Assembly: GCA_017456765.1 (NCBI GenBank)
Contig: JAFTIR010000017.1
Span: 9,248-73,247, forward strand
Length of the DNA stretch: 64,000 nucleotides
Direction: 5' to 3'
Source of the DNA: Clostridia bacterium
GTDB taxonomy: Bacteria; Bacillota; Clostridia; Oscillospirales; CAG-382
Part shown: piece after piece, positions 5,801-64,000 of the stretch
Layout of the letters: the number at the start of each line of letters is the position of its first letter
Position numbering within the stretch: the first letter of the stretch is position 1
The notes under the pieces: generated by a model
What the model was told of the DNA's origin: nothing
What the model saw: the letters and a program-made list of their open reading frames with translations, nothing else
Databases searched by the model: none
Translations under genes and position numbers: made by a program

Positions 5801-6056
5801 AATGATTGAAACAGAAAGCCCTGCTATCTGTATGAACAAGTTCCCCTCTAAGACATCTGACAGAGTTGTTTACAACATCTACAACAGAGCTTACTCCACA
5901 TTCCGTGGTGTTGCACTCAAGGTTCCTCACAAGGAAGGTGCAAAATACTACGACGCTTGGAACGAAAAGGAACTTTCCTACAAGGTAGTTGACGGCATGG
6001 CTGAGCTCTATCTTGAAATCGGCGCTCAGGAAATGGGCTGTATTGTTATTGAATAA
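2838..6056 (+). CDS. Large cytoplasmic protein of unknown function, tandem paralogue 2 (1072 aa, full length)
   Basis: AGGAGG RBS 8 nt upstream of the ATG. No signal peptide. The C-terminal ~830 aa are collinear with the first gene. Conserved acidic and His-rich motifs (YVDEFSLRIGNRCYAD.HGHH, FRMCHAEE) suggest an enzyme. A glycosidase-like fold is only a guess. Confidence 0.85.
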   Translation: MRNLLDLTFTSPNGIVEKKNGSQSLIAKRPPIGEKFSPPYSIFKFFMENIGELEEYVVIEYNCFGINRTPSRFKGPFITLKKGEEDVPLFRFDDLTIDGNTHSIIVKAPEGSFTSMDLSFYCDKVLEAHLTITKLYTCKKSELPVSCEKGMNVPSKNFTPVDISDKFDLEYVFDDFDSHNDSGLFFDKENVTLYGVPFNVKTSGKNLVAAPPAPAENDDIIDNFGKMCKRRICQAISRDGETVIDINKKASEIYFILTLSGKRWLRVKYGSDPTILGSATCDISEPLKIVDVEYFMAEVVYKDGRHDTHLPLNLCTGRHGIAGDISVYGVPCDGEVEKLIIHNRYLDGDVNLAAVTVNETDERLYPEMLIPEKDEKIQRVIDNAQKVSLENNILTLKNGALYMSLDISKGLKLLEMTNAYAPDMKVKKDTILKTRTADGIIDDVFELANASVIGNSAYITYKYEGTAFAISAFLEGKDNVKWNLSITNNGSEEFRKGIIFPEILVDYGSFAENWYFLPAYQNIDSNETFYMYEESAPSFPMQFMDTYSPAMQGGLCIATEERELITRKYSLNKNDDGIDFYVEYPIIYGDIAPDASFTASPCVITCHDGNWKSAYNLYKTWIDSWYAPYKCQDKQWYRECFWLLADITDFFETTDMLNDDMRKHTVWYNEETKTFNYRKILEYQKAITGVYPDILHMWKWNFMLRKRADGSLGSGNCWGNYNTEDYDKLGGKEALRNALHDIRDNMGIQVSLYMHPTLLSNCYPHHEKFYESSMVKHESGGRIGLAGDSFRMCHAEESWRDFSANMYPRVYKDLGIPLLYVDEFSLRIGNRCYADNHGHHCPSNLLKTDRDYIAKLKETVPEEVVLYGEYVAADVNARYIDCNISYYILDSIIDMIETMKRANDGDDRLSRVFLHTYRFAFPKIVQLILPMAMRNISWHPQKFLFFNAEAIYDSFWDCEESRGQDFTVHAFKLKKKYADCYTSDCPETMIETESPAICMNKFPSKTSDRVVYNIYNRAYSTFRGVALKVPHKEGAKYYDAWNEKELSYKVVDGMAELYLEIGAQEMGCIVIE

Positions 6057-6084: not shown

Positions 6085-6114
6085 GCCCCGACCTTCCGGT
6101 CGGGGCTTGTTTTT
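6085..6114 (+). terminator. Rho-independent terminator of paralogue 2
   Basis: GCCCCGACC-TTCC-GGTCGGGGC followed by TTGTTTTT. The stem is the same as at 2505 and 6593. Confidence 0.75.
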
Positions 6115-6119
6115 AGGGG

Positions 6120-6588
6120 ATTCCGCCATCTGCGGATGGCGTTTTCCGTCACTTTTGACTCAGCAAAAGTAACCAAAACTGCCCGCTCCAAAGAGCCGCG
6201 GGGGCTCCTATTATCTACACAAGGAAAGAGAAAACTTATATTAAACCCTCTCTACCCATGTAAATTTTGCCGCTTCGCGGATGGTGTATATATACTGCGT
6301 AACCGTAAGGTTTTCTATCACTGAGTGAACTAAACCTAAGTGTCGCACAAACGCAAAATGTAAGTGGTAAGCCGCCACGGCGAAGGAGAGAAGTCAGCGC
6401 AGGTTTGGTGGCAGTCAGTTTGCTTATGTATATGTATATGCAGATTTTGACAACAGCGTAGGAGTTTTTTGTTGCAATTCAGCATGTCAAAATCTGACAG
6501 TTTAGAGAAATATTCAACCAAACCGAGCCATCTCTCCTTTTGAGTGGAGAACTTTTGGTACTTTTGTTTCGGGACAAAAGTACAAAGC
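6120..6588. repeat. Family A element, copy A2. The arms are recognisable but the core is divergent and larger.
   Basis: Left arm: ATTCCGCCATCTGCGGATGGCGTTTTCCGTCACTTTTGACTCAGCAAAAGTAACCAAAACTGCCCGCTC. Right arm: GAGTGGAGAACTTTTGGTACTTTTGTTTCGGGACAAAAGTAC. The interior carries other palindromes, for example CAGATTTTGACA..TGTCAAAATCTG at 6441-6496. Confidence 0.7.
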
Positions 6589-6614
6589 CAAAGCCCCGAC
6601 CTTTCGGTCGGGGC
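6580..6614 (-). terminator. Terminator hairpin downstream of the oxidoreductase gene
   Basis: GCCCCGACC-TTTC-GGTCGGGGC, 12 nt after the stop at 6626. On the minus strand it is followed by CTTTGGCTTTGT. Confidence 0.55.
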
Positions 6615-6625
6615 TTATCTTATAT

Positions 6626-7681
6626 TCAGTTATTATTATCGTCAAAATCCACGGTCTGTCCAAGCCTTGCCGACTCGAATGCCGCCATCATAACCTTCAT
6701 GACACGGCGCATCTGCGAATGTGTAACGAGCTGAGCCTGAGTTCCGTCAACAGCCTTTACAAAATTCCTGTAATAATCGTGAACATCACTTTCAGGGCGT
6801 TCGATTTCATATGTTTTTGTTGTGGCATCGGTTCTCGGTGCCATTGTCTTTGTAAGTCCTGCCGCAGTAACAACAGGCACAACATTACTCTCATGCATAT
6901 TGGTGCATTTTACAACCTTTGCTTTTTCGGTCCAGTCGTATATTATTGCCGAGCCCTCGGTAGCTCTCATATAGAAACGGGGCATATTTATAAAGTTATA
7001 TGTACCTACCTCAACAAACGCCTTTTGTCCGCCATCAAACATCATTGTGAGCTTTATTCCGTCGTCAACCTCGGTGTTTGTAATATTATCAAATTCGCAG
7101 TAAATCTTTGTTAGCTTTCCGTCCATAATCTGAAGAAGCTGGTCAATAAGATGCACGCCCCAGTCAAGAAGCATACCTCCGCCGTGTTCCTTTTTGCCTC
7201 TCCAGTCGCCGGGAATACCGCGTGAACCGTGAATTCTGCTTTCTATGTTTATAAGCTGTCCTATTTCTCCGCTTTCCTTAATCTGCTTCATGGCAAGAAA
7301 ATCAACATCAAAGCGTCTGTTCTGGTGAACAGAGAAAATCTTACCGCATCTTTTTGCAGTATCTATCATCTCGTCAAGTTCACAAAGATTCATCGCAACA
7401 GGCTTTTCGCATATTACATTCTTGCCAGCCTCAAGGGCTCTGATTACAACTTCTTTATGAGAATCATTCGGAATTGCAACTGTTATTATATCAACCCTTT
7501 TATCCGAGAGCACAGACTCAAATCTGTCATATGCAAATATTCCCTTTTCTCTCGCGGCTTCATTTCTCTCTTCCTTAATATCGTAAACACCCAAAAGGTT
7601 TACAACATCACTCTTCTGTGCGTGATTTACATGCCACGAGCCCATTCCGCCGTAGCCTACCACAACAAGATTCTTTTTCAT
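6626..7681 (-). CDS. Gfo/Idh/MocA family NAD(P)-dependent oxidoreductase
   Basis: N-terminal Rossmann motif VVVGYGGMGSWH, EKP motif (VICEKPVA), 351 aa, and an AAGGAGG RBS. Confidence 0.85.
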   Translation of the reverse strand: MKKNLVVVGYGGMGSWHVNHAQKSDVVNLLGVYDIKEERNEAAREKGIFAYDRFESVLSDKRVDIITVAIPNDSHKEVVIRALEAGKNVICEKPVAMNLCELDEMIDTAKRCGKIFSVHQNRRFDVDFLAMKQIKESGEIGQLINIESRIHGSRGIPGDWRGKKEHGGGMLLDWGVHLIDQLLQIMDGKLTKIYCEFDNITNTEVDDGIKLTMMFDGGQKAFVEVGTYNFINMPRFYMRATEGSAIIYDWTEKAKVVKCTNMHESNVVPVVTAAGLTKTMAPRTDATTKTYEIERPESDVHDYYRNFVKAVDGTQAQLVTHSQMRRVMKVMMAAFESARLGQTVDFDDNNN

Positions 7682-16889: not shown

Positions 16890-18038
16890 TTAGAAGTTAA
16901 AGCGGTTATTTGTGCGTGGACGGGAAAAAATCTTGGAAATGTCCTCATCAATACCACCACTGCTATCAGAGCTTTCAGCTTCTGCTGCTTCTTCTGCCAC
17001 GGGCTTTTCAGCAGGTGCTTCATCAGCAGCCACAACCGGTGCAACGATAGGTCTTACAACTCTTGTTTCCATAGGCTTCTTTTCAGCTTCAAAGCCGGTT
17101 GCTACTACAGTTACCTTCATTTCATCCTCAAGGCTTGTATCAAATGCAGCACCCCAGATGATATTTGCTTCGGGGTTTGCTTCCTTACTGATGAGGTTTG
17201 CAGCATATTCAACTTCTTCAAGTCCGATGTCAGGGCTTGATGTGATGTTGATAATGATACCGCGTGCGCCTGTAATGGATGTTTCGAGAAGAGGGCTTGA
17301 AATTGCAGCCTTTGCAGCAAGCTCAGCCTTGTCCTTACCCTGTCCCATGCCAACGCCCATATGAGCAAGACCTGCTTCTCTCATTACTGTTCCAACGTCA
17401 TTGAAGTCGAGGTTGATGAAAGAAGTTACATTGATAAGCTCTGTAATGCTCTGTACGCCCTGACGAAGAACGTCATCGGCAATCTGGAAAGCATTTGCGA
17501 GTGTAATTCTTGTTTCGGAAACAAACTTTAATCTTTCATTGGGAATCATGATGATGGAGTCAACGCACTTTCTGAGGTTATCGATACCTGCTTCTGCCTG
17601 AGCCATCTTTCTGGGTCCTTCAAATGCAAAGGGCTTTGTTACAACGCCGATTGTAAGAATACCCATTTCCTTTGCAACCTTTGCGATTGCGGGAGCCGCA
17701 CCTGTACCTGTACCGCCTCCCATACCTGCGGTGATAAATACCATATCGGTATCAACAAGTGCTGCCTTAATATCGTCAATGTTTTCTTCAGCGGCTCTGA
17801 GACCTACTTCAGGATTTGCACCTGCGCCTCTGCCCTTTGTAACCTTTTCGCCGATAAGTATTTTTGTGGGAGCTGCGCAACGTAAAAGCGCCTGCTTGTC
17901 TGTGTTAACAGCTATAAATTCAACGCCCTTAACATCATTTTCTACCATTCTGTTTACAGCATTGTTTCCGCCGCCGCCAACACCAATAACCTTAATGACT
18001 GCGCCGAACTCATATCCTGTATCATAATCGTATGTCAT
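16890..18038 (-). CDS. ftsZ: Cell division protein FtsZ
   Basis: GVGGGGNNAVNRM and GGGTGTGAAP tubulin signatures, a disordered linker, and a C-terminal peptide DISKIF. Confidence 0.97.
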   Translation of the reverse strand: MTYDYDTGYEFGAVIKVIGVGGGGNNAVNRMVENDVKGVEFIAVNTDKQALLRCAAPTKILIGEKVTKGRGAGANPEVGLRAAEENIDDIKAALVDTDMVFITAGMGGGTGTGAAPAIAKVAKEMGILTIGVVTKPFAFEGPRKMAQAEAGIDNLRKCVDSIIMIPNERLKFVSETRITLANAFQIADDVLRQGVQSITELINVTSFINLDFNDVGTVMREAGLAHMGVGMGQGKDKAELAAKAAISSPLLETSITGARGIIINITSSPDIGLEEVEYAANLISKEANPEANIIWGAAFDTSLEDEMKVTVVATGFEAEKKPMETRVVRPIVAPVVAADEAPAEKPVAEEAAEAESSDSSGGIDEDISKIFSRPRTNNRFNF

Positions 18039-27142: not shown

Positions 27143-27225
27143 TACTTTTCGATAACTTTGCCCGAAAAATGACAGGAGATTTTGTGCTTTTGGTACTTTT
27201 TTCGAATGAAAAGAACATAAACAAA
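27143..27225. repeat. Family A fragment (two degenerate H1-type hairpins)
   Basis: TTACTTTTCG..CGAAAAATGACAG then CTTTTGGTACTTTTTTCGAATGAAAAGAACA. It aligns to the double H1 module at the right end of copy A3 (44648-44745). Confidence 0.55.
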
Positions 27226-27279: not shown

Positions 27280-27387
27280 GAGTTTGGGCGGTGGCGTTTA
27301 TGCCGACCAAACGGGGTTTGTTAAGCGACAATAAAGGTTTGTTTGTGACAAACATATGCCGTGAATATGCTGTCGGGCATTCCCGAC
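27280..27387 (-). repeat. Family B element, copy B1 (no heptamer array)
   Basis: Minus-strand reading: GTCGGGAATGCCCGAC-AGCATATTCACG...GTCGCTTAACAAACCCCGTTTGGTCGGCATAAACGCCACCGCCCAAACTCAT. Its first base is the G of the typA TAG stop codon. Confidence 0.8.
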
Positions 27388-29207: not shown

Positions 29208-29307
29208 TAAAATTCACCCGATTTTTCAAATTCATTTTTTCCAATTTTACATTTTATCACAAAGCAATGAAAAAATCAACACATTACGACAAAATTTTCA
29301 GCGGCGA

Positions 29308-29436
29308 GTCGCCGCCGACTATCCACGACGCACGTTTGCGGTAAACAAACGTTTATTTTCGCTTAACAAACAACGTTTGGGCAGCATAAACACCACCGCC
29401 CAAACGCATTCCTAATTCCTAATTACTAATTCCTCA
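29308..29436 (+). repeat. Family B element, copy B2, with 4 heptamer units
   Basis: GTCGCCGCCGAC...TTCGCTTAACAAACAACGTTTGGGCAGCATAAACACCACCGCCCAAACGCAT followed by TTCCTAA TTCCTAA TTACTAA TTCCTCA. It ends 10 nt before the cysK stop codon. Confidence 0.8.
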
Positions 29437-29446
29437 TTTGAAAAAT

Positions 29447-32367: not shown

Positions 32368-33684
32368 TTATTGTTCGACTACATTTACAACGTCAATATC
32401 ATAGTATTCAAAGCACTCTATTGCACATTTGTCAATAATTTCGCCGCAAACGGCAATGGGGATTGCGGGTGGACAGGAAACACACGCCGAGGCAAGGATT
32501 TTCCCTTCGGCAAGATTTACGGGTACACTTCTCTGCGGGGAAAACACCGCTTCTCTTACCGACATTGCTCTTTCGAGCCTTTTGACGACAGGTGCTGTTT
32601 GCTGGACAGGCTCTCTTTTTTTAAGTCCTCTGAAAAAACTTGTCAGCCTTTCAAAGTCCTCTGCCCCATTTCCGGGAGAAAACATCATAACAAGGTTATC
32701 CTTATCATAAAATTCGGGATATATTCCATTCTTTTCAAGCAAAGATGCAAGCTCCGTCCCCAAAAATCCGGCAGTCTTTGGTTTAATATTTATTTTCAGC
32801 TTTTCACGGCCTGTAAACTCAATTCCAAGGTGAGAAAGCTCTGCCTTAAGCTCATCGCACAGGCGGCACGTTTCAGCCACCTTATTTTTAAAATCCCCCA
32901 ACATCTCTTCATTTGCCTTATCCATACTCGCCAGAATAAGATACGACGGACTTGTGGAGGCAAACAGAGACATTGCTCGCTTTGCGTCCTTCTCATATGG
33001 CTTTATTGCAGATTTGGATATGTGAAGATAGGCAGAGCCTGTAAGACAAGGCAGGGTTTTATGTGCAGAATCACAGCACATATCGGCGCCGTTATCCATG
33101 GGGTGGTTGCCTGTAAACTTCATATACGCACCATGTGCATTATCCACAATCAAAGGAAGATTGTGCTTATGGCACACTATTGACAATCCCTTTATGTCAA
33201 GGACATTTCCAAGATAATCGGGACTTGTGACATACACGGCAAAATATTCTCCGTTTGTCAGTGCCGCATCAAGCTCGTCAGGCGATATTTTACAGGAATA
33301 CAAATCATCGCCGTAAAGCCAGTCGACATCGGCATCGCAAAGAGCAAGGGCAGACATAAAGCTTTTATGGGCATTTCTACCCGCAAGCACCTTTTTTTTC
33401 CCGTCTGCATACTGCATCGCCATAAAAAGCATTGCACGAATACACAAGGACGAACCCTCTGTGGAATAGAACGAAGCACGTGTTTCAAAAACCGAGGAAA
33501 GATTTCTTTCACTTTGGGCTATTATACCCTCAGCTTCAAAAAGGGAATCCGCACCGCATATTTCGGTAATGTCATACATCTCACAGCCAAGGTTTCTTTT
33601 TCCCTTATGCCCCGGCATATGCAGGCGGACATTTTCACCTTGTGCGTACTTTTGTACAAAGTCATATATAGGTGTCTTACTCAT
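32368..33684 (-). CDS. PLP-dependent Orn/Lys/Arg decarboxylase family protein (fold type I)
   Basis: HMPGHKG motif near the N-terminus and a SAHKTL PLP-lysine motif. The ATG at 33684 is embedded in the last codons of scfB (GATGAGTAA), giving an 8-nt overlap. Confidence 0.85.
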   Translation of the reverse strand: MSKTPIYDFVQKYAQGENVRLHMPGHKGKRNLGCEMYDITEICGADSLFEAEGIIAQSERNLSSVFETRASFYSTEGSSLCIRAMLFMAMQYADGKKKVLAGRNAHKSFMSALALCDADVDWLYGDDLYSCKISPDELDAALTNGEYFAVYVTSPDYLGNVLDIKGLSIVCHKHNLPLIVDNAHGAYMKFTGNHPMDNGADMCCDSAHKTLPCLTGSAYLHISKSAIKPYEKDAKRAMSLFASTSPSYLILASMDKANEEMLGDFKNKVAETCRLCDELKAELSHLGIEFTGREKLKINIKPKTAGFLGTELASLLEKNGIYPEFYDKDNLVMMFSPGNGAEDFERLTSFFRGLKKREPVQQTAPVVKRLERAMSVREAVFSPQRSVPVNLAEGKILASACVSCPPAIPIAVCGEIIDKCAIECFEYYDIDVVNVVEQ

Positions 33685-35053
33685 CGTCGCCGGTTTCCTC
33701 TGCAACCTTCATCATAATCGCACATTCAACTCTCTTTTTGAAAAGGTCACATCCATCCTTATAAACACCGCGAACAGAGCCTGTGGAATGATAAGCGTTT
33801 GCCGCACAACCGCCGCTGCAATAGAGTCTTGCCCAGCAGGTCTTACATTCCTCACGGGAATAGACATTACAGCTTGCAAAATCGTTCTGCACATCCTTAT
33901 TTGTAACACCGTTCCAGATGTCTCCGAGCTTAAACTTTTCCTCGCCCACAAACTGGTGGCAGGGGTACAAATCTCCCCAAGGAGTGACAGCCATATATTC
34001 TGTTCCCGAGCCGCAGCCGGAAATTCTCTTATATATGCAGGGACCGCCCGTAAGGTCTATCATGTAGTGGTAGAAGGTAAAGGGTCTTCCCTCTTTCTTT
34101 CTCTCAAGCATGAGCTTTGCAAGCTCCTCATACTGCCTCATGACGATTTTCTTGTCGTCCTCCGTCAGCGCCGCCTCATCGCCCGGGGCGCATACAACAG
34201 GCTCCATGGAAAGCTCATCAAAGCCAAGGTCAAGCATAACCTTTATGTCCTCGAGGAAATCGGGGTTTCTGTGGGTGAATGTACCTCTCATGTAGTAATC
34301 CTTGCCACCGCGCATCTTTACAAGCCTTTGGAATTTGGGGACAATCTTATCCCAGCTTCCGGCTCCGTTATAATCTACACGAAGTGCGTCATGGATTTCT
34401 TTTCGTCCGTCAAGGCTGAGCACAACATTACTCATCTCTCTATTTGCAAAATCAATTACATCGTCATCAATAAGCATACCGTTTGTGGTAAGGGTGAAAC
34501 GGAAGTTCTTATTATGCTGTTTTTCTATGCTTCTTGCATACTCCACAAGCCTCTTTACAACATCCCAGTTCATGAGCGGCTCACCGCCGAAGAAGTCAAC
34601 CTCAAGGTTTCTTCTGCTTCCCGAGTTTGCAATAAGGAAGTCAAACGCCTGCTTACCTACCTCAAAGCTCATAACGGCTCTGTCACCATGGTATTTGCCC
34701 TGGCTTGCAAAGCAGTATGAACAGTTGAGGTTACAGGTGTGGGCAATATGTATACAGAGTGCCTTTACGACATCGCCACTCTTTTCCTTGAATGTTCCTG
34801 CCATGCTCTCGAAGGTATCCTCGGTAAAGAGTCTCTTATTCTCTATAAGCTCATTTATATCGTCAATACAGTCAAGAACATCCTGCTCTGTGACATTATC
34901 GTATTTTTCGAGTATTATTTTTATGATATTTTCTTGTGTTTCGTCCTTGAACATGGCGATTATATCGTATGCCACCTCGTCCACTGCATGAATAGAGCCC
35001 GAGCAGGTATCAAGAACGATATTATATCCGTTTAATTTGTACTGGTGAATCAT
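33677..35053 (-). CDS. scfB: Radical SAM/SPASM-domain SCIFF peptide maturase
   Basis: CNLNCSYC radical SAM cluster motif and a Cys-rich SPASM C-terminus (CGSGTEY...CHQF...CKTCWARLYCSGGC). The N-terminus MIHQYKLNGYNIVLD is typical of ScfB. The gene lies next to a SCIFF peptide gene. Confidence 0.9.
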   Translation of the reverse strand: MIHQYKLNGYNIVLDTCSGSIHAVDEVAYDIIAMFKDETQENIIKIILEKYDNVTEQDVLDCIDDINELIENKRLFTEDTFESMAGTFKEKSGDVVKALCIHIAHTCNLNCSYCFASQGKYHGDRAVMSFEVGKQAFDFLIANSGSRRNLEVDFFGGEPLMNWDVVKRLVEYARSIEKQHNKNFRFTLTTNGMLIDDDVIDFANREMSNVVLSLDGRKEIHDALRVDYNGAGSWDKIVPKFQRLVKMRGGKDYYMRGTFTHRNPDFLEDIKVMLDLGFDELSMEPVVCAPGDEAALTEDDKKIVMRQYEELAKLMLERKKEGRPFTFYHYMIDLTGGPCIYKRISGCGSGTEYMAVTPWGDLYPCHQFVGEEKFKLGDIWNGVTNKDVQNDFASCNVYSREECKTCWARLYCSGGCAANAYHSTGSVRGVYKDGCDLFKKRVECAIMMKVAEETGDDE

Positions 35054-35076
35054 TTGTTTTCCTTTCGTAAAAAATG

Positions 35077-35190
35077 AGGAATCAGGAATTAGGAATTAGG
35101 AATGAGTTTGGTCGACCTCGTTATGCCGACCAAACGGTGTTGGTTAAGCGACACTAAAAGCTTGTTTATGTCAAAGATTCCCCGTGAAAT
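35077..35190 (-). repeat. Family B element, copy B3, with 4 heptamer units, inserted between scfA and scfB
   Basis: Plus strand: AGGAATC AGGAATT AGGAATT AGGAATG then AGTTTGGTCGACCTCGTTATGCCGACCAAACGGTGTTGGTTAAGCGAC...CCCCGTGAAATC. This is the reverse complement of the family B consensus. Confidence 0.8.
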
Positions 35191-35281: not shown

Positions 35282-35431
35282 TTACTTGCTTTCCTTGTTT
35301 TCGCACTTCTGATTTGCGATGCCGCAGCTTGTCTTGCAAGCGGACTGGCAGGATGTCTGGCATTCGCCGCAACCGCCGTTCTTAGCGGATTCACAAAGAT
35401 TTCTTGTTTCAAGTGTCTTAATTCTCTTCAT
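35282..35431 (-). CDS. scfA: SCIFF (six-cysteine-in-forty-five) ranthipeptide precursor, 49 aa
   Basis: Hand translation: MKRIKTLETRNLCESAKNGGCGECQTSCQSACKTSCGIANQKCENKESK. It contains the hallmark GGCGECQTSCQSACKTSC core. A GGGGG RBS lies 10 nt upstream. It is too short for the ORF track. Confidence 0.9.
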   Translation of the reverse strand: MKRIKTLETRNLCESAKNGGCGECQTSCQSACKTSCGIANQKCENKESK

Positions 35432-41978: not shown

Positions 41979-44150
41979 TTATTTAAAATCAAAGGAGGAG
42001 GTTATAAAGTCGGCAGGCTGTCTTGTGCCCGTCCTATCCCTCGTGCTTCCCGTAAAATCGAACACAGCCTTTCCCTCGACGAGCTTCAGCACGCCGTCAA
42101 AGGCTTTGCCGTGCTTTGAAACGAATCCCACGATTTTCGAGGTCTGTCCCCTCTCAAGAAGCAGTTTTACATTTGAAACCGAAATATTTCTACCGCAGAT
42201 ATTAAGGCTTACGCCGAATTCGCACCCTTCTTTATAGCCTCTGCAGCCGTATTTATATCTTCCTCTGACAACATCCTTGCCGCAGAGAGGACACAAGCCA
42301 ACAACATCTCCGAAGGAGCCTGTATAGTCATCCGTTTCGGGAGGCATTTGTTTCTTTTCAAACACGGCTCTTATTTCATCCTCTGCAAGCGTTACGCTGT
42401 CACGCACCTCAATTTCTCCGCGATACACCTTTTTGAGTGCCTTACCGAGCTCGCTTGTCTTATACTTATCCATACTTATATTCATTCTCGACAGGGATTC
42501 GATAAGAAAAATGCCGTCAGGGAGGATTGTGTATACATCTTTTTTGAGAAGTATATATTTACTTTTGCAAGCGTTTTCAATAATTCCCGTTCTTGTTGCC
42601 TCTGTGCCAAGCTCGAGTCCCTCAAAAATTGCCTTGTAGTCCTCTGCATCGTCCCTGTTTTCTTCGTCATTTGCCGCCGCTTTTTCTTCTTTAAAGGGAT
42701 TTTTGAGGTAGTTGTTGAGTGTTTCGATTGTATAGTGCTTTGGCGGAGTTGTTTCCTTTTCGACGGGTTCAAAGTTTATGTTTACTTTATCTCCCTTTTC
42801 GAGCTTTGGCAGAATCTTATCCTTTGCGGAATAGGTGTCGTACTGCGTCCAGCCCTTCTGCACAATAACCGCACCCTTGAGATTGAACTCTTCAAGCTCA
42901 CCCAAATTTATCTTGATTTCGGTCTTTTCGGCAAGGCAGGGTTCTGCACAGAAGACCGCACAGAACCTATGCACAACCGTCGAATACACCTGCATCTGTT
43001 TTTCGGTGAGGGAATCTTTGGGCGGCACTTTATAGGTAGGTGTCAGAGCCGAATGGGATTCGATTTTGCTGTCATCAAACACAGTCTTATCATCACGGAA
43101 CTTAAGATTATATCCCATTTTCGCAAAGTTTGCCACAATTTTTGAAATCTTATCCTTTTCGGCACTGGCAAGATACTCGGAGTTTGTTCTGGGATATGTA
43201 AGATAGCCCATTTCGTACAGCTTCTGTACAATTTCAAGGCTCTCGGTCATATTCATTTTATATTTTTTACTGAGTACATTCTGGAGCTTTGAAAGAGAAT
43301 ACAGCTTGCCGGGGGCAATGGTATCCTTTTTGCGTTTAACACCTGTAACAACAGCTGTTTCGGCATTATACTTTTCACACACAGCCTTGGCTTTATCAAG
43401 CTCATCCTTGGAGAATTTCAGCTTTGAGTTAAGCTCAATTTCCTCTCCGTTTGTAACCGCGGTGCTTTTAAGTCCGTAATATATCTCAGGCACAAAGTTT
43501 TCAATCTGCTTGTCCCTGTCGTATATTGCCTTGACAATGGGAACGATTACACGACCCACCCTCAGAAGAAGTCCCGTTCTTATTGTTGCGTATCTTGTGA
43601 GATTCACGCCATACAGCCAATCGATGTATGTTCTGGCGAGGCCCTCGTTGGCAAGGTTATCATACTCTGTCTCATCCTGCATATCCGAGAGGGCTTGTCT
43701 TATGGTTTCAGCCGTCTGGTCGGGAAGCCACAGGCGTTTGAGGCTCTTTTCGGACTTAAGTGCATTCTCAATACAAAGTCTAACTATTATTTCTCCCTCT
43801 CTGTCGGCGTCCCCCGCGTTTACGATTGTATCGACATCGGGGCGGTTACAAAGGGCTTCGATAAGCTCAAACTGGCGTTTTACTCCCTCATCCGGTTCTT
43901 TGTTATCGGATTTGCGAAGTGCAAAATCAAATCTTTTCGGAAAACACGGAAGATTTGAAAGAGTCCACTTATTACTGCCGTCGGGACTCGGGTTATAATG
44001 CTCTATATCCTCGAGGGAAAAGAGGTGTCCGAATGCCCATGTGACAATGTACTCATCGTTCTCAAGATACCCCGAACGTTTATTCATTTGTCCGATAGCG
44101 TCGGCTATGTTTCTGCCGAGGCTTGGCTTTTCTGCTATGATTAACTTCAT
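41979..44150 (-). CDS. topB: DNA topoisomerase III with C-terminal zinc-ribbon repeats
   Basis: Toprim N-terminus MKLIIAEKPS, the active-site region YLTYPRT(N)S, and C-terminal CPLCG...C..Y..GC motifs. 723 aa. Confidence 0.9.
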   Translation of the reverse strand: MKLIIAEKPSLGRNIADAIGQMNKRSGYLENDEYIVTWAFGHLFSLEDIEHYNPSPDGSNKWTLSNLPCFPKRFDFALRKSDNKEPDEGVKRQFELIEALCNRPDVDTIVNAGDADREGEIIVRLCIENALKSEKSLKRLWLPDQTAETIRQALSDMQDETEYDNLANEGLARTYIDWLYGVNLTRYATIRTGLLLRVGRVIVPIVKAIYDRDKQIENFVPEIYYGLKSTAVTNGEEIELNSKLKFSKDELDKAKAVCEKYNAETAVVTGVKRKKDTIAPGKLYSLSKLQNVLSKKYKMNMTESLEIVQKLYEMGYLTYPRTNSEYLASAEKDKISKIVANFAKMGYNLKFRDDKTVFDDSKIESHSALTPTYKVPPKDSLTEKQMQVYSTVVHRFCAVFCAEPCLAEKTEIKINLGELEEFNLKGAVIVQKGWTQYDTYSAKDKILPKLEKGDKVNINFEPVEKETTPPKHYTIETLNNYLKNPFKEEKAAANDEENRDDAEDYKAIFEGLELGTEATRTGIIENACKSKYILLKKDVYTILPDGIFLIESLSRMNISMDKYKTSELGKALKKVYRGEIEVRDSVTLAEDEIRAVFEKKQMPPETDDYTGSFGDVVGLCPLCGKDVVRGRYKYGCRGYKEGCEFGVSLNICGRNISVSNVKLLLERGQTSKIVGFVSKHGKAFDGVLKLVEGKAVFDFTGSTRDRTGTRQPADFITSSFDFK

Positions 44151-44218: not shown

Positions 44219-44267
44219 GGGAATTAGGAATTAGGAATTAGGAATTAGGAATTGGGAATTGGGAATT
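44219..44267 (+). repeat. Heptamer tandem array (RGGAATT)x7 with no family B core
   Basis: GGGAATT, AGGAATT x4, GGGAATT x2, preceded by a degenerate AGGGAAA unit. Confidence 0.9.
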
Positions 44268-44314
44268 AGAAGTACAAGTCGAGGCGGATAAAGTGTGAGA
44301 TGCATTGTTTAGAG

Positions 44315-44752
44315 ATCCCGCACTCTGCGAAGTGCGTTTTCCGTCACTTTTGTCGCAGCAAAAGTGACCAAAACTGCCCACTCATGTGTCGGGACTTTTA
44401 GATGTCCCGACACGAGCCGTGGAGGCTCTTTTTTATACTCAACACAGAATTTGAGAAAAGTTTTAGATGTGTTCTCACTACTCCACGTGTATTTGCCTGC
44501 CTTTGGCAGGCTATAGCCTCGCAAAGCGAGGCAAACCACATCTATTAGTGGAAAGAGAAAAAAATCTTTAAAAAAATTTCTCCGAAGATAAAAGAGCCTT
44601 CGCGGCTCGGGCAAAATCTTGAAAAATTTTGCCCATGAGCGACACCTTTTGGTTACTTTTCGGTGACGAAAAGTGACAGAAAACGCGGCTCTCGGAGCGG
44701 AGAACTTTTGGTTCTTTTGTTTCGGGACAAAAGAACAGAAAACCCGCCTCTT
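44315..44752 (+). repeat. Family A element, copy A3 (full length, with an extra H1 module at the right end)
   Basis: Left arm 44315-44430: ATCCCGCACTCTGCGAAGTGCG-TTTTCC-GTCACTTTTG..CAAAAGTGAC...CCCACTCATG-TGTCGGGAC..GTCCCGACA-CGAGCCGTGGAGGCTC. Centre 44492-44536: TTTGCCTGCCTTTGGCAGGCTATAGCCTCGCAAAGCGAGGCAAAC. Right arm 44594-44752 is the mirror image. Confidence 0.85.
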
Positions 44753-44830
44753 CCATATATTGATTGATGACAAATGCAAGTATTTGATGTAAAATATACA
44801 CAGATATTCTGAAATTAACGGAGAAGAATC

Positions 44831-45364
44831 ATGCACATAATAAAAATAAGTCCCGTGAGCTTCAAAATCGTCCTTTCAAAGGAGGACCTTGTACGTCACG
44901 GGGTTGATAACATATTGAATCACGCCGACATTTCGGGGGATTTTTTTGAAGAAATAATATACGAAACAAACAGGCTTTACGGCAATCCCTTCAACGAGGG
45001 AGCAATAGATGCCGAGTTCTTTGAATCAAAGGACGGAGGAGGAGAGCTTTTTCTCTACAGCAGTAAAAAAGCAGGTAAAAAAACTACATATCTTTTCAGA
45101 ACAAACAGTTCTGATTCCCTCGTTTCTCTTTGCCTCAGGCTGTCGGGGCATCACATTCCAAGCGACAGCAGACTCTTTTATGACGACGGAAAATACAATC
45201 TTCTTCTTTTCTATCCTAAAAGAGATGACTTACTCCTTTCCTGCATGAAGGAGTACGGAACGACTTTCGAAGTCAGCCGTCTTCAGCGCTGGCTTCTCGA
45301 AGAGCACGCAAAGGTAATTCTGGACAAAGGTGCCGTTGAACAAATCTCAAAAATTTTCAATTAA
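44831..45364 (+). CDS. mecA: MecA-like adaptor protein (short clostridial form)
   Basis: N-terminus MHIIKISPVSFKIVLSKEDLVRHGVD resembles the MecA N-terminal domain pattern (I..I....I.....DL...G). 177 aa. GGAG RBS. The assignment is tentative. Confidence 0.5.
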   Translation: MHIIKISPVSFKIVLSKEDLVRHGVDNILNHADISGDFFEEIIYETNRLYGNPFNEGAIDAEFFESKDGGGELFLYSSKKAGKKTTYLFRTNSSDSLVSLCLRLSGHHIPSDSRLFYDDGKYNLLLFYPKRDDLLLSCMKEYGTTFEVSRLQRWLLEEHAKVILDKGAVEQISKIFN

Positions 45365-53781: not shown

Positions 53782-54005
53782 GCGGGGGAGTCCCCGCTGA
53801 CAATTCACGTTATATTCTCGTGCAAAGCAAGCCCTCGTAGTCGCTTAACGAACCCCGTTTGTCGGGAAAGCCCGACAGCAATTCACGTTATATTCTCGTG
53901 CAAAGCAAGCCCTCGTAGTCGCTTAACGAATACCATTTGGTCGGCATATACGCCACCAACTAAACTCATTCCTAATTCCTAATTCCTAATTCCTAATTCC
54001 TAATT
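53782..54005 (+). repeat. Family B element, copy B4: a tandem one-and-a-half-mer with 5 heptamer units
   Basis: A 50-nt block (ATTCACGTTATATTCTCGTGCAAAGCAAGCCCTCGTAGTCGCTTAACGAA) occurs identically at 53804 and 53881. It is followed by TTTGGTCGGCATATACGCCACC..AAACTCAT and (TTCCTAA)x5. The element fills the whiA-dnaE gap. Confidence 0.85.
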
Positions 54006-55608: not shown

Positions 55609-55707
55609 ACAGTTCTCCTTATACATTTATTCATTATAAGTATAGCATGGATTTGTGAATTTGTGAAGTGGTTTTATGTTTTTTATTGCAAAATTTAGTC
55701 TACAAGA

Positions 55708-56020
55708 ATTCCGCACTCTGCGGAGGGCGTTTTCCGTCACTTTTGACACAGCAAAAGTAACCAAAACTGCCCACTCTGCAAAAAAATTACCGCTACGCTC
55801 AGATTTTTTGCGAGCCGTGGCGGCTCTTTTGACCTCAACGAAATATTAGAAAAAGCTCCGATTTTATTCTCACTATTAAGGTGTGGTTCGCCTCGCCTTG
55901 CGAGGCAATAGCCTGCCAAAGGCAGGCAAACCATGTGGAGTAGTGAGAGAAAAATATAAGTTTTCTCCAATTCTGCGTAGAAAACAAAAAAGAGTCGCCC
56001 TCCGCAGAGGGCGAAACATT
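55708..56020 (-). repeat. Family A element, copy A4 (centre inverted relative to A3/A5/A6; one arm shortened)
   Basis: ATTCCGCACTCTGCGGAGGGCG-TTTTCC-GTCACTTTTG..CAAAAGTAAC...CCCACTCT-GCAAAAAA..TTTTTTGC-GAGCCGTGGCGGCTC. Centre 55886-55931: GGTTCGCCTCGCCTTGCGAGGCAATAGCCTGCCAAAGGCAGGCAAAC. It ends in the CGCCCTC..GAGGGCG hairpin. Confidence 0.8.
55981..56013 (-). terminator. Rho-independent terminator of mgtE, formed by the terminal hairpin of repeat A4
   Basis: On the minus strand: CGCCCTC-TGCG-GAGGGCG followed by ACTCTTTTTTGTTTT, 26 nt after the mgtE stop codon. Confidence 0.7.
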
Positions 56021-56038
56021 CCTAAAAAGTTAAAAAAA

Positions 56039-57760: not shown

Positions 57761-60367
57761 CTATTCCAGAATCTTTTTAAGCTCATACAGCTTTGTAAGA
57801 GCCTCGATTGGTGTAAGCGTATTTACATCAATCTTTTTGATTTCATCTATTACCCTATCCTCTTCGAGGCTGTCAAGAGCAAGGGTTGACGAGTAATCTT
57901 CCGTCACCTTGATTTTCGGCATCTGGCTCTTAACGGGGGAAACATTATGCTTTTCTTCGATTTCCTTTAGGATTTCGTTTGCCCTGTCAACAATTGATTT
58001 TGGAACGCCTGCGAGCTTTGCGACTTCAATACCATAGCTTCGGTCTGCCGCGCCCTCAACAATTTTACGAAGAAAGATAAGGTCATCTCCGCGTTTTTTT
58101 GCAACGATGTTGAAATTCGCAACGCCCTTGCAGACATCTGCAAGCTCTGTCAGTTCATGATAGTGCGTTGCAAACATGGTCTTTGCATAGAGTTTTTTGC
58201 TGACAGTATACTCAACTATCGCCCTTGCTATACTCATGCCGTCATAGGTAGATGTACCTCTTCCTATTTCATCATATACAACAAGGCTCTTGTTTGTGGC
58301 ATTCTTTAAGATATATGCACATTCCGACATTTCAAGCATGAAGGTAGACTGTCCCTGTGCTAAGTCATCCGACGCACCTATTCTTGTAAACACCTTATCG
58401 ACAATACCGATTCTTGCGCTTCTTGCAGGAACAAAAGAGCCTATCTGCGCCATAATGACAATGAGGGCAGTCTGGCGCATATATGTACTCTTACCCGCCA
58501 TATTGGGTCCTGTGATGAGAAGAAGGCGTCTGTTTTCGTCAAAGTGAACATCATTGGGAACAAACATTTCATTCTTCATGAATTTCTCGACAACAGGGTG
58601 TCTTGAGTCCTTAAGGTCTATACAATCAGAGGTATCAACCTCAGGGCAGGTATAGTTATTCTTCTTTGCAACGTCACTGAGCGAAACATACACGTCAAGA
58701 TGTGAAAGAGCAACGGCAGTTTTCTGCACCCTTGTGAGATTCTGTGCAACATACTCGCGAAGTCTCTGGAACAGTTCATACTCAAGGGAGACAAGTCTTT
58801 CCTTTGCTCCGAGCACCTTTGTTTCCATTTCCTTGAGTTCTTCCGTTATATATCTCTCGGCACCCGTAAGTGTCTGCTTTCTTACGTATCTTTCAGGCAC
58901 AAGATCCTTGAAGGAATTTGTGACTTCAATATAATAGCCGAAAACTCTGTTATAGCCGACTTTAAGGTTCTTGATTCCCGTCAGTTCCTTTTCGTTCTGC
59001 TCTATCTTTGCCATCCAGGAGTGACCGTCATTCATCATGTCCCTCAGTTCATCTGCCTCGGGTGAAAATCCTTCTTTTATAAAGCCTCCCTCACGGATGG
59101 AAAAGGGCGGGTCATCCTTTATTGCGTTGTTTATATAGCCTGCAATATCACTGAGGGTATCAAGGTCACCGCAAAGTTTTGTCAGCTCTTCACTCTTGAA
59201 ATTTGAAAGATACTTCTTTATAGGACCGATAACACTTATCGACTGTTCGATTGCCTTCATGTCCTTACCGTTCGTGGTATTGTACACGACTCTCGTCATA
59301 AGTCTTTCAAGGTCACCGATTTCCGAGAGCAGGTGCTGGATTTCTTCCTTTGTTATAAAGTCTGAGTACAGCTCCTTTACGGCATTCTGGCGTTTTATGA
59401 TTTCATTGCAGTTGACAAGGGGCATTTCAATCCACTTACGTAAAAGTCTTGCACCCATTGCCGTCTTTGTCTTATCGAGAACCCAGAGAAGAGTGCCTTT
59501 CTTTTCCCTTGTTCTCATGGTTTCGCAAAGCTCAAGGTTTCGTCTTGTATTTACATCAATTCCGAGATACGCGTTATTATCGTAGCAGTTGATTTCATTA
59601 AGATATGAAAGGTCAACCTTCTGAGTATCTGCGATATATAGGAGAAGTGCCGCTATCGCAAAAACGGCAGGTGAGCTTTCATTTAAGAATGCCTTATCAA
59701 GCTCATCCCGTCCGAAATGCTCAAGGACTTCGTTATATGCATCTTTTTTATAAAGCGATGAGGTTCTGTCATTGAAAACGCACCCTAAGCGCTCGCTGAC
59801 AAATGAATATATTTCGGGAACTCCGCCTCTGTCGGCGTTTGTTATTATTTCACTGGGGCTATAGGTTGCAAGCTCATTTATTATGCGCTTATTCATATCT
59901 CCGTCGGTAATCTGAGTTACAAAAATCTTTGCAGTCGAAACATCGGCAAAGCAAAGCCCGCAGGTAGTTCCCTCAACATACATGGAACAAAGGTAATTGT
60001 TTTTGCCCTCCTGGAGCATTGTGCTTTCGGTAACGGTGCCGGGAGTAATTACCCTTGACACTTCCCTCTTTACAAGCCCCTTTGCGGTAGCCGGGTCCTC
60101 CGCCTGCTCGCAGACAACCACAGTATAGCCTTTTTTGACAAGTCTTGCAATATAGGTTTCGGCGCTATGGTAAGGAACACCGCACATGGGCGCTTTTTCC
60201 TCCATGCCGCAGCTCTTTCCCGTAAGTGTAAGCTCAAGCTCTCGGGAAACAACCTTTGCATCGTCAAAAAACATCTCGTAAAAGTCACCGAGACGGTAGA
60301 AGAGTATTTCGTTTTTATACTTTTCCTTTACTTCAAGGTATTGAAGCATCATGGGGGTATAGGGCAT
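57761..60367 (-). CDS. mutS: DNA mismatch repair protein MutS
   Basis: N-terminal MPYTPMMLQYLEVKEKY...LFYRLGDFYEMF, Walker A GPNMAGKST and DEIGRGTST. The 32-codon upstream extension in the ORF track runs into repeat A5 and is rejected. Confidence 0.93.
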   Translation of the reverse strand: MPYTPMMLQYLEVKEKYKNEILFYRLGDFYEMFFDDAKVVSRELELTLTGKSCGMEEKAPMCGVPYHSAETYIARLVKKGYTVVVCEQAEDPATAKGLVKREVSRVITPGTVTESTMLQEGKNNYLCSMYVEGTTCGLCFADVSTAKIFVTQITDGDMNKRIINELATYSPSEIITNADRGGVPEIYSFVSERLGCVFNDRTSSLYKKDAYNEVLEHFGRDELDKAFLNESSPAVFAIAALLLYIADTQKVDLSYLNEINCYDNNAYLGIDVNTRRNLELCETMRTREKKGTLLWVLDKTKTAMGARLLRKWIEMPLVNCNEIIKRQNAVKELYSDFITKEEIQHLLSEIGDLERLMTRVVYNTTNGKDMKAIEQSISVIGPIKKYLSNFKSEELTKLCGDLDTLSDIAGYINNAIKDDPPFSIREGGFIKEGFSPEADELRDMMNDGHSWMAKIEQNEKELTGIKNLKVGYNRVFGYYIEVTNSFKDLVPERYVRKQTLTGAERYITEELKEMETKVLGAKERLVSLEYELFQRLREYVAQNLTRVQKTAVALSHLDVYVSLSDVAKKNNYTCPEVDTSDCIDLKDSRHPVVEKFMKNEMFVPNDVHFDENRRLLLITGPNMAGKSTYMRQTALIVIMAQIGSFVPARSARIGIVDKVFTRIGASDDLAQGQSTFMLEMSECAYILKNATNKSLVVYDEIGRGTSTYDGMSIARAIVEYTVSKKLYAKTMFATHYHELTELADVCKGVANFNIVAKKRGDDLIFLRKIVEGAADRSYGIEVAKLAGVPKSIVDRANEILKEIEEKHNVSPVKSQMPKIKVTEDYSSTLALDSLEEDRVIDEIKKIDVNTLTPIEALTKLYELKKILE

Positions 60368-60400
60368 ATTGTTACCTGTCTTTCTTATTATTTCGTAAGA

Positions 60401-60799
60401 ATTTCGCTTCTGCGGAAGCGACTTTCTTTTGTCCCGCGACAAAAGAAAGCAAAAACGCTCCACTCATGTGTCGAAAACTCCGCTTCGCTCCGTAACATTC
60501 GACACGAGCCGTGGCGGCTCTTTTTTATACTCTACTCAAAGTTAAGATAAGTTTTGGTTTTTTTCTCACTACTTCATATAGTTTGCCTGCCTGCGGCAGG
60601 CTATAGCCTCGCAGTGCGAGGCGAATCACGCTTATTAGCGTGAAGAGAACTTAAACTTTTGGAAATATTATGTTGAGCTTGAGCCTCCACGGCTCGCAAA
60701 AAATCTGAGCGAAGCGGTAATTTTTTGCAGAGTGGGCGCTTTGGGTTACTTTTGGCGAGTCAAAAGTAACGTAAAACGCAGTCAGCAGACTGCGGAACT
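60401..60799 (+). repeat. Family A element, copy A5 (full length)
   Basis: The arms carry TCGCTTCTGCGGAAGCGA, CTTTCTTTTG..CAAAAGAAAG, CCACTCATG-TGTCGAA..TTCGACA-CGAGCCGTGGCGGCTC. Centre 60581-60626. The mirror arm ends ...GTTACTTTTG..CAAAAGTAAC-GTAAAAC-GCAGTC..GACTGCGGAAC. It ends 1-2 nt from the ylbF-like stop codon. Confidence 0.85.
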
Positions 60800-60800
60800 C

Positions 60801-61241
60801 TTAATGACATCCCTTGCAGGTGGCGCAGTTATGCGTACACTCCGCGCCGCCCTCAACACCGTCCTCATAGTCGTCATACTCCTTTTCACAGGTGAGAGTT
60901 TCGGGAGAAATATACGAAGTAATTGTCATATTTATGGCATTGAGAAGAATGTTGAGATTTTCCTCTGCCATGTTGTATGCTTTCATTTCGGGGTGGGATG
61001 TGATTTCCGAATAGAGCGTCTCCATTCTCGCGGAAATTGCATCGAGAAGCTGGGTATCATTTTCGTCACCCTTTGCGCTTTCTATGTCATACACCTTTTT
61101 CTGCACCTTGAATTCGTCAAGTTTCGCTTTAAGTGTTGGATTTTCCTTGCATTTATCGCGCGTTTCGCAAAAGTTTTTATACTGCTCGCTCTCCTTTAGC
61201 TTTTCACCAAGGGCACGTGCAAGTGTCATAAGTTCATTCAT
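60801..61241 (-). CDS. YlbF/YmcA-like protein with a Cys-rich C-terminal tail
   Basis: A helical ~110-aa body with the YlbF-like pattern (LKESEQYKNF...KLDEFK), then ECTHNCATCKGCH. It lies between miaB and mutS. Confidence 0.6.
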   Translation of the reverse strand: MNELMTLARALGEKLKESEQYKNFCETRDKCKENPTLKAKLDEFKVQKKVYDIESAKGDENDTQLLDAISARMETLYSEITSHPEMKAYNMAEENLNILLNAINMTITSYISPETLTCEKEYDDYEDGVEGGAECTHNCATCKGCH

Positions 61242-63552: not shown

Positions 63553-63605
63553 ATTTTTTCTCTTTTCTATAATTGTTTATACGATTTAACTTACACATAA
63601 GAAGT

Positions 63606-64000
63606 ATTCCGCGGCTTGCGAGCCGCGTTTTCCGTTCTTTTGTCCCGAAACAAAAGAACCAAAAATTCTCCACTCATGTTTCGTGACTTTTTGAGGTCAC
63701 GAAACGGGGCGTGGTGCCCCTTTTCAACCCTCTACGCAGGAAAGCATAAACTTATATTTTTTCACTCTCTACTCCACCTGTGTTTGCCTGCCCTTGGCAG
63801 GCTATAGCCTCGCAAAGCGAGGCAAACCACGCTTGTTAGTGGAAAGACACTCGGAGGTTTTGGAATCATTTCGTTGAGGGCTAAGAAGAGCCTCCGCGGC
63901 TCGTTCGGGACCTCAAAAAGTCCCGAACATGAGCGGTCGCTTTGGGTTACTTTTCGCGAGTGAAAAGTAACGGAAAACGCACTCCCAAGTCGTGCGGAAC
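63606..64000 (+). repeat. Family A element, copy A6 (apparently complete, ending at the window edge)
   Basis: ATTCCGCGGCTTGCGAGCCGCG-TTTTCC-GTTCTTTTG..CAAAAGAAC...CCACTCATG-TTTCGTGAC..GTCACGAAA-CGGGGCGTGGTGCCCC. Centre 63782-63827. Mirror arm: GAGCCTCCGCGGCTC-GTTCGGGAC..GTCCCGAAC-ATGAGCGG...GTTACTTTTC..GAAAAGTAAC-GGAAAAC-GCACTC..GTGCGGAAC. Confidence 0.85.

Follow-up and report, generated by a model that had tools for sequence, protein, structure and literature searches.

The 64,000-nucleotide window analysed here (Clostridia bacterium, assembly GCA_017456765.1, contig JAFTIR010000017.1) is core chromosome of a spore-forming Firmicute, encoding SpoIID, MecA, YlbF, WhiA, the dcw cluster from mraZ to ftsZ, recA, dnaE and mutS. 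Its intergenic gaps hold copies of a large nested-palindrome repeat, here termed family A, one of which, E3, lies between a divergent pair consisting of a topoisomerase gene (41979–44150, − strand) and a mecA-like gene (44831–45364, + strand). Each family A copy is a head-to-head doublet of a four-hairpin chain (H0–H3) around a small dyad centre. From the outside inward, the modules of an arm are H0, H1, a linker with the motif CC(A/G)CTC, H2, H3 and a spacer, followed by the dyad centre and then the mirror arm. In E3 they are arranged as follows.

44312–44760, + strand: E3, with two full arms around the dyad centre, plus one more H1 unit outside the right arm
44319–44336, + strand: left H0, CGCACT-CTGCGA-AGTGCG then TTTTCC; a terminal hairpin like those of repetitive extragenic palindromes (REPs), with an inward-facing terminator-like score
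44343–44368, + strand: left H1, GTCACTTTTG-TCGCAG-CAAAAGTGAC, its stem lengthened by flanking TTTT/AAAA
44377–44386, + strand: left linker, conserved CCCACTCATG with the CC(A/G)CTC motif (arm linkers end in CC(A/G)CTC(ATG))
44387–44412, + strand: left H2, a variable hairpin of type a, TGTCGGGAC-TTTTAGAT-GTCCCGACA
44414–44428, + strand: left H3, GAGCC-GTGGA-GGCTC then TTTTTT; terminator-like, inward
44492–44535, + strand: dyad centre, 7-bp hairpins GCCTGCC-TTT-GGCAGGC and GCCTCGC-AAA-GCGAGGC flanking TATA
44594–44608, − strand: right H3, terminator-like, GAGCCGCGAAGGCTC then TTTTATC
44609–44634, − strand: right H2, a variable hairpin of type b
44652–44677, − strand: right H1
44687–44700, − strand: right H0, degenerate in the window and perfect (CCGCTC-TCG-GAGCGG) in another strain
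44711–44736, − strand: extra outer H1 unit, GTTCTTTTGT-TTCGGG-ACAAAAGAAC

The general form of H3 is GAGCC-N5-GGCTC with a T-run, and an A/T-rich spacer of ~60 bp separates it from the centre, where the two hairpins of E3 jointly form a perfect 12-bp palindrome, AGGCTATAGCCT, on the symmetry axis of the element. The first-pass annotation of the window had described 4-nt centre loops and ends resembling terminal inverted repeats (TIRs) of ~60 bp. The loops are in fact 3 nt long (4 nt in E7), and the arms are imperfect inverted repeats of ~120 bp, 65–70% alike within an element and not clean.

Copies of the element

For the copy count, the window was extended by flanking DNA of the same contig to 80.7 kb, in which family A has seven copies: six inside the window and one, E7, 1.2 kb beyond its right end. 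An eighth, E8, comes from another contig, 1.8 kb long, assembled from a sample in which the source organism is also present. Self-BLAST with 44305–44760 found related sequence at ~2528–2726, 6108–6594, 44305–44760, 55670–56025, 60391–60809 and 63593–64000, agreeing within 3–40 bp with the six copies placed by the first-pass annotation. The copies are 260–460 bp long; besides E3, the window contains:

2548–2705, + strand: E1, decayed; type c and type d arms sharing one H3, with H0 and centre both missing
6117–6594, + strand: E2, left arm of H0, H1 and H3; right end an H1 unit alone; ~320-bp unrelated interior
55705–56022, − strand: E4, short form, inverted; full type d arm, centre, then H0 alone
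60398–60802, + strand: E5, full copy with type c and type d arms, between ylbF and mutS
63603–64000, + strand: E6, full copy that the window edge truncates, flanked by a methyltransferase gene and hsp33

E6, first placed at 63606, ends not at the window's edge but 12 bp further, at ~64012. E7, a short form, occupies the gap between the HPr gene and trpR, and the centre of E8 is a single hairpin. The module order initially attributed to all six window copies is indeed common to them, but E1 and E2 are incomplete and E4 is a short form. A further fragment proposed at 27143–27225 scored 8.8 bits with the arm model, which is not significant, and is at best a degenerate solo H1. Nor are the copies spread at roughly one per 10 kb, as had been suggested: they are clustered, with two in 2.5–6.6 kb and five in 44.3–65.5 kb, and the 10-kb dcw operon has none.

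These structures far exceed chance expectation. The centre pattern GCCTGCC-N3-GGCAGGC-N4-GCCTCGC-N3-GCGAGGC matches four times (44495, + strand; 55890, − strand; 60585, + strand; 63786, + strand) against 0 expected from 100 shuffles, and 16 H1-type hairpins were found, nearly all within elements, against 0.6 in shuffles. Folded as single strands and compared with shuffles, E3 and E5 have z-scores of −10.7 and −11.7.

The possibility that metagenome assembly created the family as an artefact, by chimerism or mis-joining of a repeat, deserves next to no credence. It would fit the observations that independent assemblies often break within the elements and that in one contig an E6 arm continues into another centre and arm. 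However, the same copies with the same flanks recur in five independent assemblies from different samples and assemblers (ERZ27256821 k141, ERZ28653963 scaffold_645, ERZ28653980, ERZ28654056 and ERZ28018778), and are thus not artefacts of assembly. The window corresponds to scaffolds of metagenomes belonging to a single study. The aberrant contig, from another sample (L007 1–390, compared with window 63553–64000), is identical through the hsp33-side arm of E6 to H3; past H3 it has a different spacer, centre loop and a type c arm matching none of E1–E8 exactly. Either two copies have recombined at this junction or the assembler has jumped to a ninth one.

Family A is non-coding. A 154/175-aa open reading frame (ORF) across E3 (44309–44836, − strand) is on record as a protein and is a gene-calling artefact: an exhaustive phmmer search of 1.84 billion representative proteins found no relatives, returning the query's own cluster only. 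Similarly, the longest mutS ORF (57761–60463, − strand) runs 32 codons into E5 from a GTG, while the real start at 60367 yields 868 aa, as in relatives. Used as bait, the ORFs across elements recovered the E3 locus in another strain, at 97.6% identity, and the new copy E8; a reverse search with the E8 ORF gave nothing new.

Database searches returned no known counterpart. Rfam gave 0 matches at gathering score over the whole window, and permissive searches with E3 and E2 stayed at chance level (E ≥ 0.03). The centre pattern had 0 matches in genome contigs of 185,579 species, in JGI metagenome contigs and in viral contigs, the source species evidently being absent or masked there; the H1-plus-linker pattern had 0 in the metagenome and viral contigs, and BLAST of E3 and E5 against plasmids and phages gave no match. 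The first-pass annotation had seen here an unrecognised, transposase-less family of intergenic palindromes, and it is a true repeat family: nothing matches it in Rfam, plasmids, phages or contig collections, all copies are intergenic and interrupt no gene, and a domain search of the window, Pfam domains included, found no transposase or integrase.

Insertion sites and shared modules

To place the copies in an evolutionary context, we compared their surroundings with relatives comprising nine species from a collection of 185,579 species and three closer ones reached through Hsp33 at 90, 86 and 82% identity. The nearest in the collection are uncultured Eubacteriales, Clostridiales and Oscillospiraceae metagenome-assembled genomes (MAGs) from gut, the best with 72% MiaB identity. 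Up to 12 related species have retained the gene order pfk-HPr-trpR-methyltransferase-hsp33-miaB-ylbF-mutS-mgtE, and three of the spacers within it compare as follows.

Methyltransferase gene to hsp33: at most 93 bp in 12 of 12 relatives (the genes overlap in L099); 485 bp here (E6)
ylbF to mutS: 33–155 bp in 11 relatives; 433 bp here (E5)
HPr gene to trpR: 166–251 bp in 4 relatives; 488 bp here (E7)

Across the first two sites, spacers in the relatives run from 15 to 155 bp. Because gene order is kept and these spacers are short in the relatives, the family A copies are lineage-specific insertions, which entered short intergenic spacers after the split from the sister species. The edges of the insertions can be placed closely: at E7 the trpR promoter region matches the relatives base-for-base up to the element edge, and E5 begins one base past the ylbF stop codon, with the conserved mutS ribosome-binding region resuming ~15 bp beyond its far end. 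When E1–E8 were used as BLAST queries against syntenic DNA of 80 related species (1.4 Mb), nothing of family A was found, and the family therefore arose or amplified within the source lineage.

The copies sit close to, and outside, transcription signals. E1 and E7 follow the terminator of the upstream gene, E2 lies between the terminators of two convergent genes, and E4 is placed after the end of mgtE and before the promoter of murB; the promoter-like sites belonging to topA, mecA, murB and trpR are just outside the elements, including both divergent promoters at E3. No promoter-like site was found between E5 or E6 and mutS or hsp33. By consensus-pattern prediction, H0 with TTTTCC and H3 with its T-run score as intrinsic-terminator-like, all inward. 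The sole terminator-like site after mgtE is the H0 of E4 (56014–55995, − strand), TCGCCCTC-TGCG-GAGGGCGA then CTCTTTTTTG, and E4 appears to supply the mgtE terminator.

The outermost hairpin, H0, has a pattern of variation of its own. We compared 14 H0 sequences, other species included. The loop is TGCG in 13 of the 14, while the stems take at least six forms (CGCCATC, CGCACTC, TCGCTTC, CGCGGCT, CGCAGTC and CGCCCTC) with full compensation; pairs 4 and 5 each occur in four of the standard pair types, with pairing in 97% of cells. Even within one element, left and right H0 often differ in stem sequence, both still pairing, and almost every end has (A/T)AGG(A/G)ATTYCGC outside the hairpin. Stems that covary while the loop and flank stay constant are what would be expected of a site that is read folded and single-stranded, and the H0 ends are, judged by this covariation, under structural constraint. 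H0 is present at both ends of E4, E5, E6 and E8 and degenerate or truncated at one end of E3 and E7; the two units lie 230–360 bp apart, with highly structured sequence between them. The dyad centre behaves in the opposite manner, with constant stems and free loops, and its palindrome looks like a double-stranded binding site.

The modules, as opposed to the whole composite, extend to other species, where a structure-aware model detected them and BLAST did not. Three other loci of Oscillospirales type have H0 as part of hairpin-chain repeats distinct from family A, and a fourth has H1-like hairpins. The sister species with 86% Hsp33 identity (L098) has its own 165-bp five-hairpin chain in two inverted copies (6900–7090 and 17240–17400), one of them in the same mgtE-murB gap as E4. 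This chain has H0 alone in common with family A, identical at 22 of 22 nt to the right H0 of E4. One L098 copy has been called as a 96-aa gene. A rumen Ruminococcus MAG (L088) carries H0-type hairpins in chains whose other hairpins resemble those of L098, and a further locus (L103) has a full arm of H0, H1, linker and long H2, scoring 42 bits with the arm covariance model and showing compensated changes in H1. L103 is filed as viral; it is actually bacterial chromosome with rml genes and EAL proteins, and a phage link was dismissed. In a human-gut MAG (L018), an inverted pair of H1-like hairpins bounds ~950 bp of non-coding DNA after mgtE; we considered this interval as an autonomous element and rejected it, as it has no credible ORF. 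With modules common to other species, family A is one lineage's version of a wider modular class of hairpin chains in this order of Clostridia, and H0 and H1 are, on this comparison, older than the composite.

Differences among the arms give the elements a direction. Hairpin modules vary between copies, and arm subtypes are set mainly by H2: type a arms are E3-left, E6-right and E7; type c arms E5-left, E8-right and E1-left; and type d arms E4, E5-right, E8-left and E1-right. Same-subtype arms are 79–87% alike, whereas the arms of one element are no closer than those of different elements. Elements thus have left-right polarity, which agrees with the order of the two centre hairpins, in one orientation in E3, E5, E6 and E7 and opposite in E4. 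That H2 can be dispensed with is shown by the left arm of E2, where it is missing (CCGCTC-CAAA-GAGCC). Internal deletions, with breakpoints in palindromes or microhomologies, account for the short and partial copies: E1 resembles E5 with everything between its two H3 palindromes removed, in E4 the H0 has been fused to the T-run of H3, and in E7 the loop of H0 (CTGCGGAA) has been fused to a spacer motif similar to it (CGCAGGAA).

Explanations for the family

On balance, we lean towards family A being a lineage-specific, non-coding, non-autonomous repeat of an uncultured Oscillospirales-type bacterium of gut or rumen, moved in trans and similar to REPINs, the REP doublets mobilised by REP-associated tyrosine transposases (RAYTs), or to miniature inverted-repeat transposable elements (MITEs). 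The H0 hairpins would be the ends that matter, their folded single-stranded form being recognised by an enzyme encoded elsewhere. The likeliest candidate is an HUH/Y1 transposase of the IS200/RAYT kind, which would fit hairpin ends in place of sequence-identical TIRs, a conserved flank beside the hairpin and the lack of a consistent target-site duplication (TSD); a DDE enzyme reading double-stranded TIRs seems less likely. This HUH detail of mobilisation is tentative, possible rather than probable. As a secondary effect, the element might act as a bidirectional terminator or insulator: since H0 and H3 have T-runs pointing inward in both arms, transcripts arriving from the gene on either side would be expected to stop within a copy.

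Several observations weigh against these proposals. No consistent TSD or target motif was found at the flanks of E4–E8 when their intact ends were compared with the empty sites of four relatives; isolated candidates, TTAAG/TTACG at E5 and A6 at E7, could be chance in A/T-rich DNA, and the result neither proves nor excludes either class of transposase. No transposase of any kind was seen within 80.7 kb. Conspecific contigs showed no insertion polymorphism, each that reaches a locus either carrying the element or ending inside it. Between strains, E3 is 97.6% identical and its flanks 97.9%; since the element diverges no more than its flanks, nothing here shows recent movement. Beyond the 80-kb stretch, the dispersal of the family rests on one copy, E8, on its single 1.8-kb contig. 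The covarying stems could also reflect selection on RNA or mismatch correction within palindromes. As for termination, the proposed role derives from consensus-pattern prediction, a strong effect is made less likely by the missing promoter-like sites between E5 or E6 and the genes behind them and by the loss of T-runs from the E6 arm that meets incoming transcription, and E5 and E6 lie inside what is one operon in relatives, where strong termination would cut off mutS and hsp33.

A classical MITE, a deleted derivative of a DDE-type insertion sequence (IS) whose transposase binds double-stranded TIRs and moves the element by cut-and-paste with short TSDs, is in our view unlikely. The size of 260–460 bp, imperfect TIRs, long stem-loop fold and intergenic location all fit published descriptions of MITEs (PMC3184786), and the flanks noted at E5 and E7 are readable as short A/T-rich duplications. 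Against this, TSDs are not consistent across E4–E8, and the H0 stems differ between ends yet pair perfectly, which a protein binding double-stranded TIRs would not need. Moreover, no IS with family A ends is present in 80.7 kb of the genome or 1.5 Mb of relatives. A different account dispenses with mobility and takes family A for host-selected structural DNA or RNA modules (such as terminators, mRNA-stabilising 3′ structures or sites bound by a nucleoid or regulatory protein), multiplied by duplication, recombination and gene conversion, and thus functional units of the SPRITE or BIME (bacterial interspersed mosaic element) type. The inward terminator-like hairpins on both arms, the position of copies just after gene ends or terminators and outside promoters, the constant-stem centre palindrome, like the site of a dimeric protein, and the retention of H0 and H1 across species while composites differ would all suit it. 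Nonetheless, at least seven unrelated loci gained a block of 300–450 bp with the same module order at sites empty in all relatives examined, so that a process of copying and insertion is required anyway, and the evident decay of E1 and E2 argues against selection on each copy; we regard this account as quite doubtful.

More improbable is a reading of the copies as genes for structured non-coding RNAs, or as cis-regulatory leaders, with transcription from one defined strand. The very strong predicted structure (z ~ −11) and covarying stems would be expected of such RNAs, and, as RNA, the H0 loop UGCG belongs to the stable UNCG tetraloop class. But the two-fold symmetry makes both strands fold alike, copies are found in either orientation and in all arrangements of the neighbouring genes (divergent, convergent and, at E2, between two terminators), E5 has no promoter-like site within it or ahead of it, Rfam has no match, and sister species lack the element at loci with conserved flanking genes. 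Returning to a repeat moved in trans, a bolder version can be sketched, for which our confidence is low: H0 would be the REP-equivalent of a REPIN-like system of Clostridia, driven by a single-copy HUH/Y1 enzyme shared by several Oscillospirales lineages, each lineage building its own hairpin chain around H0, doubled here into a 400-bp dyad, with the lineage-specific AGGAATT arrays that adjoin elements of family A and of a second family, B, as preferred targets or as slippage products of the terminal heptamer, and the copies kept by the host as bidirectional transcription insulators.

REP, REPIN, MITE and BOX repeats are well studied in Proteobacteria and streptococci, and REPINs are roughly 100 bp or less. 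To our knowledge, small palindromic repeats have hardly been described in the uncultured Clostridia, which are dominant in gut and rumen communities. BIMEs, known from Escherichia coli, are mosaics of palindromic units and short motifs that are extragenic and often follow genes. Family A shares with them a mosaic build and units older and wider spread than the composites, and differs in sequence, host and layout, BIMEs being arrays of alternating REPs and family A one large dyad with a specific centre. An IHF site, for its part, has been noted in BIMEs (PMC3184786). Like the REPINs of Pseudomonas and Enterobacteria (PMC3116915, PMC3337134), family A has two inverted hairpin units at its ends (here H0) and is intergenic, dense and non-autonomous, with no evident TSD and with covarying stems beside a conserved flank motif. 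It departs from them in its size of 260–460 bp, with three extra hairpins per arm and a dyad centre, in its flank of (A/G)GGAATTY type instead of GTAG, and in its host, the REPIN and RAYT papers surveyed making no mention of Firmicutes. A RAYT (Y1 transposase) gene was not found by domain search of the window.

The BOX elements of Streptococcus pneumoniae, built as boxA-boxB(n)-boxC, 67–637 bp long and classed as 'MITE-like', with ISStso1 as the proposed partner IS (PMC3184786), are alike in their Firmicute host, modularity with optional modules, strong folding, similar size and the absence of an enzyme nearby. There is no sequence similarity, however, and a linear A-B-C array stands against the two-fold doublet of family A, which has no known partner. 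SPRITE repeats are terminator-like and lie near gene 3′ ends, recalling the T-runs of H0 and H3 and the positions of E1, E2, E4 and E7, but they are single terminator-like units, whereas a family A element can contain as many as four such sites, directed inward from both ends, as well as other modules. Correia/NEMIS, RUP and ERIC elements, like other MITEs, are small, non-coding and intergenic, with TIRs and a long stem-loop, and can affect transcription of their neighbours (PMC3184786). MITEs are usually <200 bp, up to ~400 bp, with no transposase gene (PMC3184786); family A likewise combines small size, lack of a transposase gene and terminal inverted repeats, its two ends both having (A/G)GGAATTYCGC. 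It differs from classical MITEs, which have defined TSDs (e.g. TA), in showing none that are consistent, in lying at the upper end of the size range and in having self-folding hairpin ends. The likeness to MITE, REPIN and Correia elements pointed out by the first-pass annotation is thus supported, family A being repeated, non-coding, intergenic and inserted, while membership in any one of these classes is not demonstrable. By analogy, family A would work like a REPIN or MITE, and in appearance it is close to the pneumococcal BOX and SPRITE repeats, though larger and symmetric.

The family indicates that genomes of uncultured Clostridia can carry dense structured repeats of ~400 bp arising in one species-level lineage. 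If a hairpin-recognising enzyme does drive it, REPIN-type biology would extend to a new phylum, and if copies do act as terminators in both directions, operon structure would change, with a single operon of the relatives being split by E5 and E6 upstream of mutS and hsp33. In practical terms, family A breaks short-read assemblies and yields spurious gene calls, such as the 154-aa E3 protein, and its copies could serve as strain markers.

Neighbouring repeats and other observations

Tandem arrays of the heptamer AGGAATT, with 4–7 units, lie at 29408–29438, 35073–35103, 44220–44269 and 53968–54005 and, just past the window, at L004 9512–9552. One directly adjoins the right end of E6 at ~64012, as (TCCTAAT)6, an (AGGAATT)n array; one is 45 bp from E3, and three adjoin units of a second repeat family. 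The heptamer resembles the element termini (AGGAATTYCGC), and array length varies by strain, L012 having one unit more. No perfect AGGAATT heptamer array of this kind was found in 89 loci (1.5 Mb) from related species. In the closest relative from the genome collection (L014 5775–5835), the short ylbF-mutS spacer holds an AATAATT-like heptamer array and a palindrome, GGAATTTCC-AAG-GGAAATTC, whose halves resemble the outermost bases of the family A termini.

The second family, B, is unrelated in sequence to family A and has no Rfam match at gathering score. Its units of ~75–130 bp lie at 27298–27365, 29304–29438, 35106–35188 and 53786–53998 and contain ...TCGCTTAAC(G/A)A...CGTTTGG(T/G)CGGCATA...; a tandem duplicate occupies 53786–53939, and the units end in AGGAATT arrays. 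One unit lies beside a ranthipeptide locus. There, a SCIFF precursor of 49 aa with six Cys (35282–35431, − strand; TIGR03973, 80 bits) is followed downstream by its radical-SAM maturase (33677–35053, − strand; TIGR03974, 765 bits), and the 228-bp gap between them holds a terminator-like hairpin, the family B unit and a heptamer array.

Near the left end of the window, two of three tandem paralogous genes for large DUF6259 proteins (146–2476 and 2838–6056; the third at L094 6448–9639), 72–89% identical in DNA, are each followed by a near-identical terminator hairpin, GCCCCGACC-N4-GGTCGGGGC, and E1 and E2 come right after these two terminators. Within the interior of E2 (6215–6540), a 72-nt stretch (...GGTAAGCCGCCACGGCGAAGGAGAG...) is 74% identical to a ~185-bp tandem repeat after mgtE in the sister species with 90% Hsp33 identity (L095 17010–17580), and may represent a third repeat or a small RNA family.

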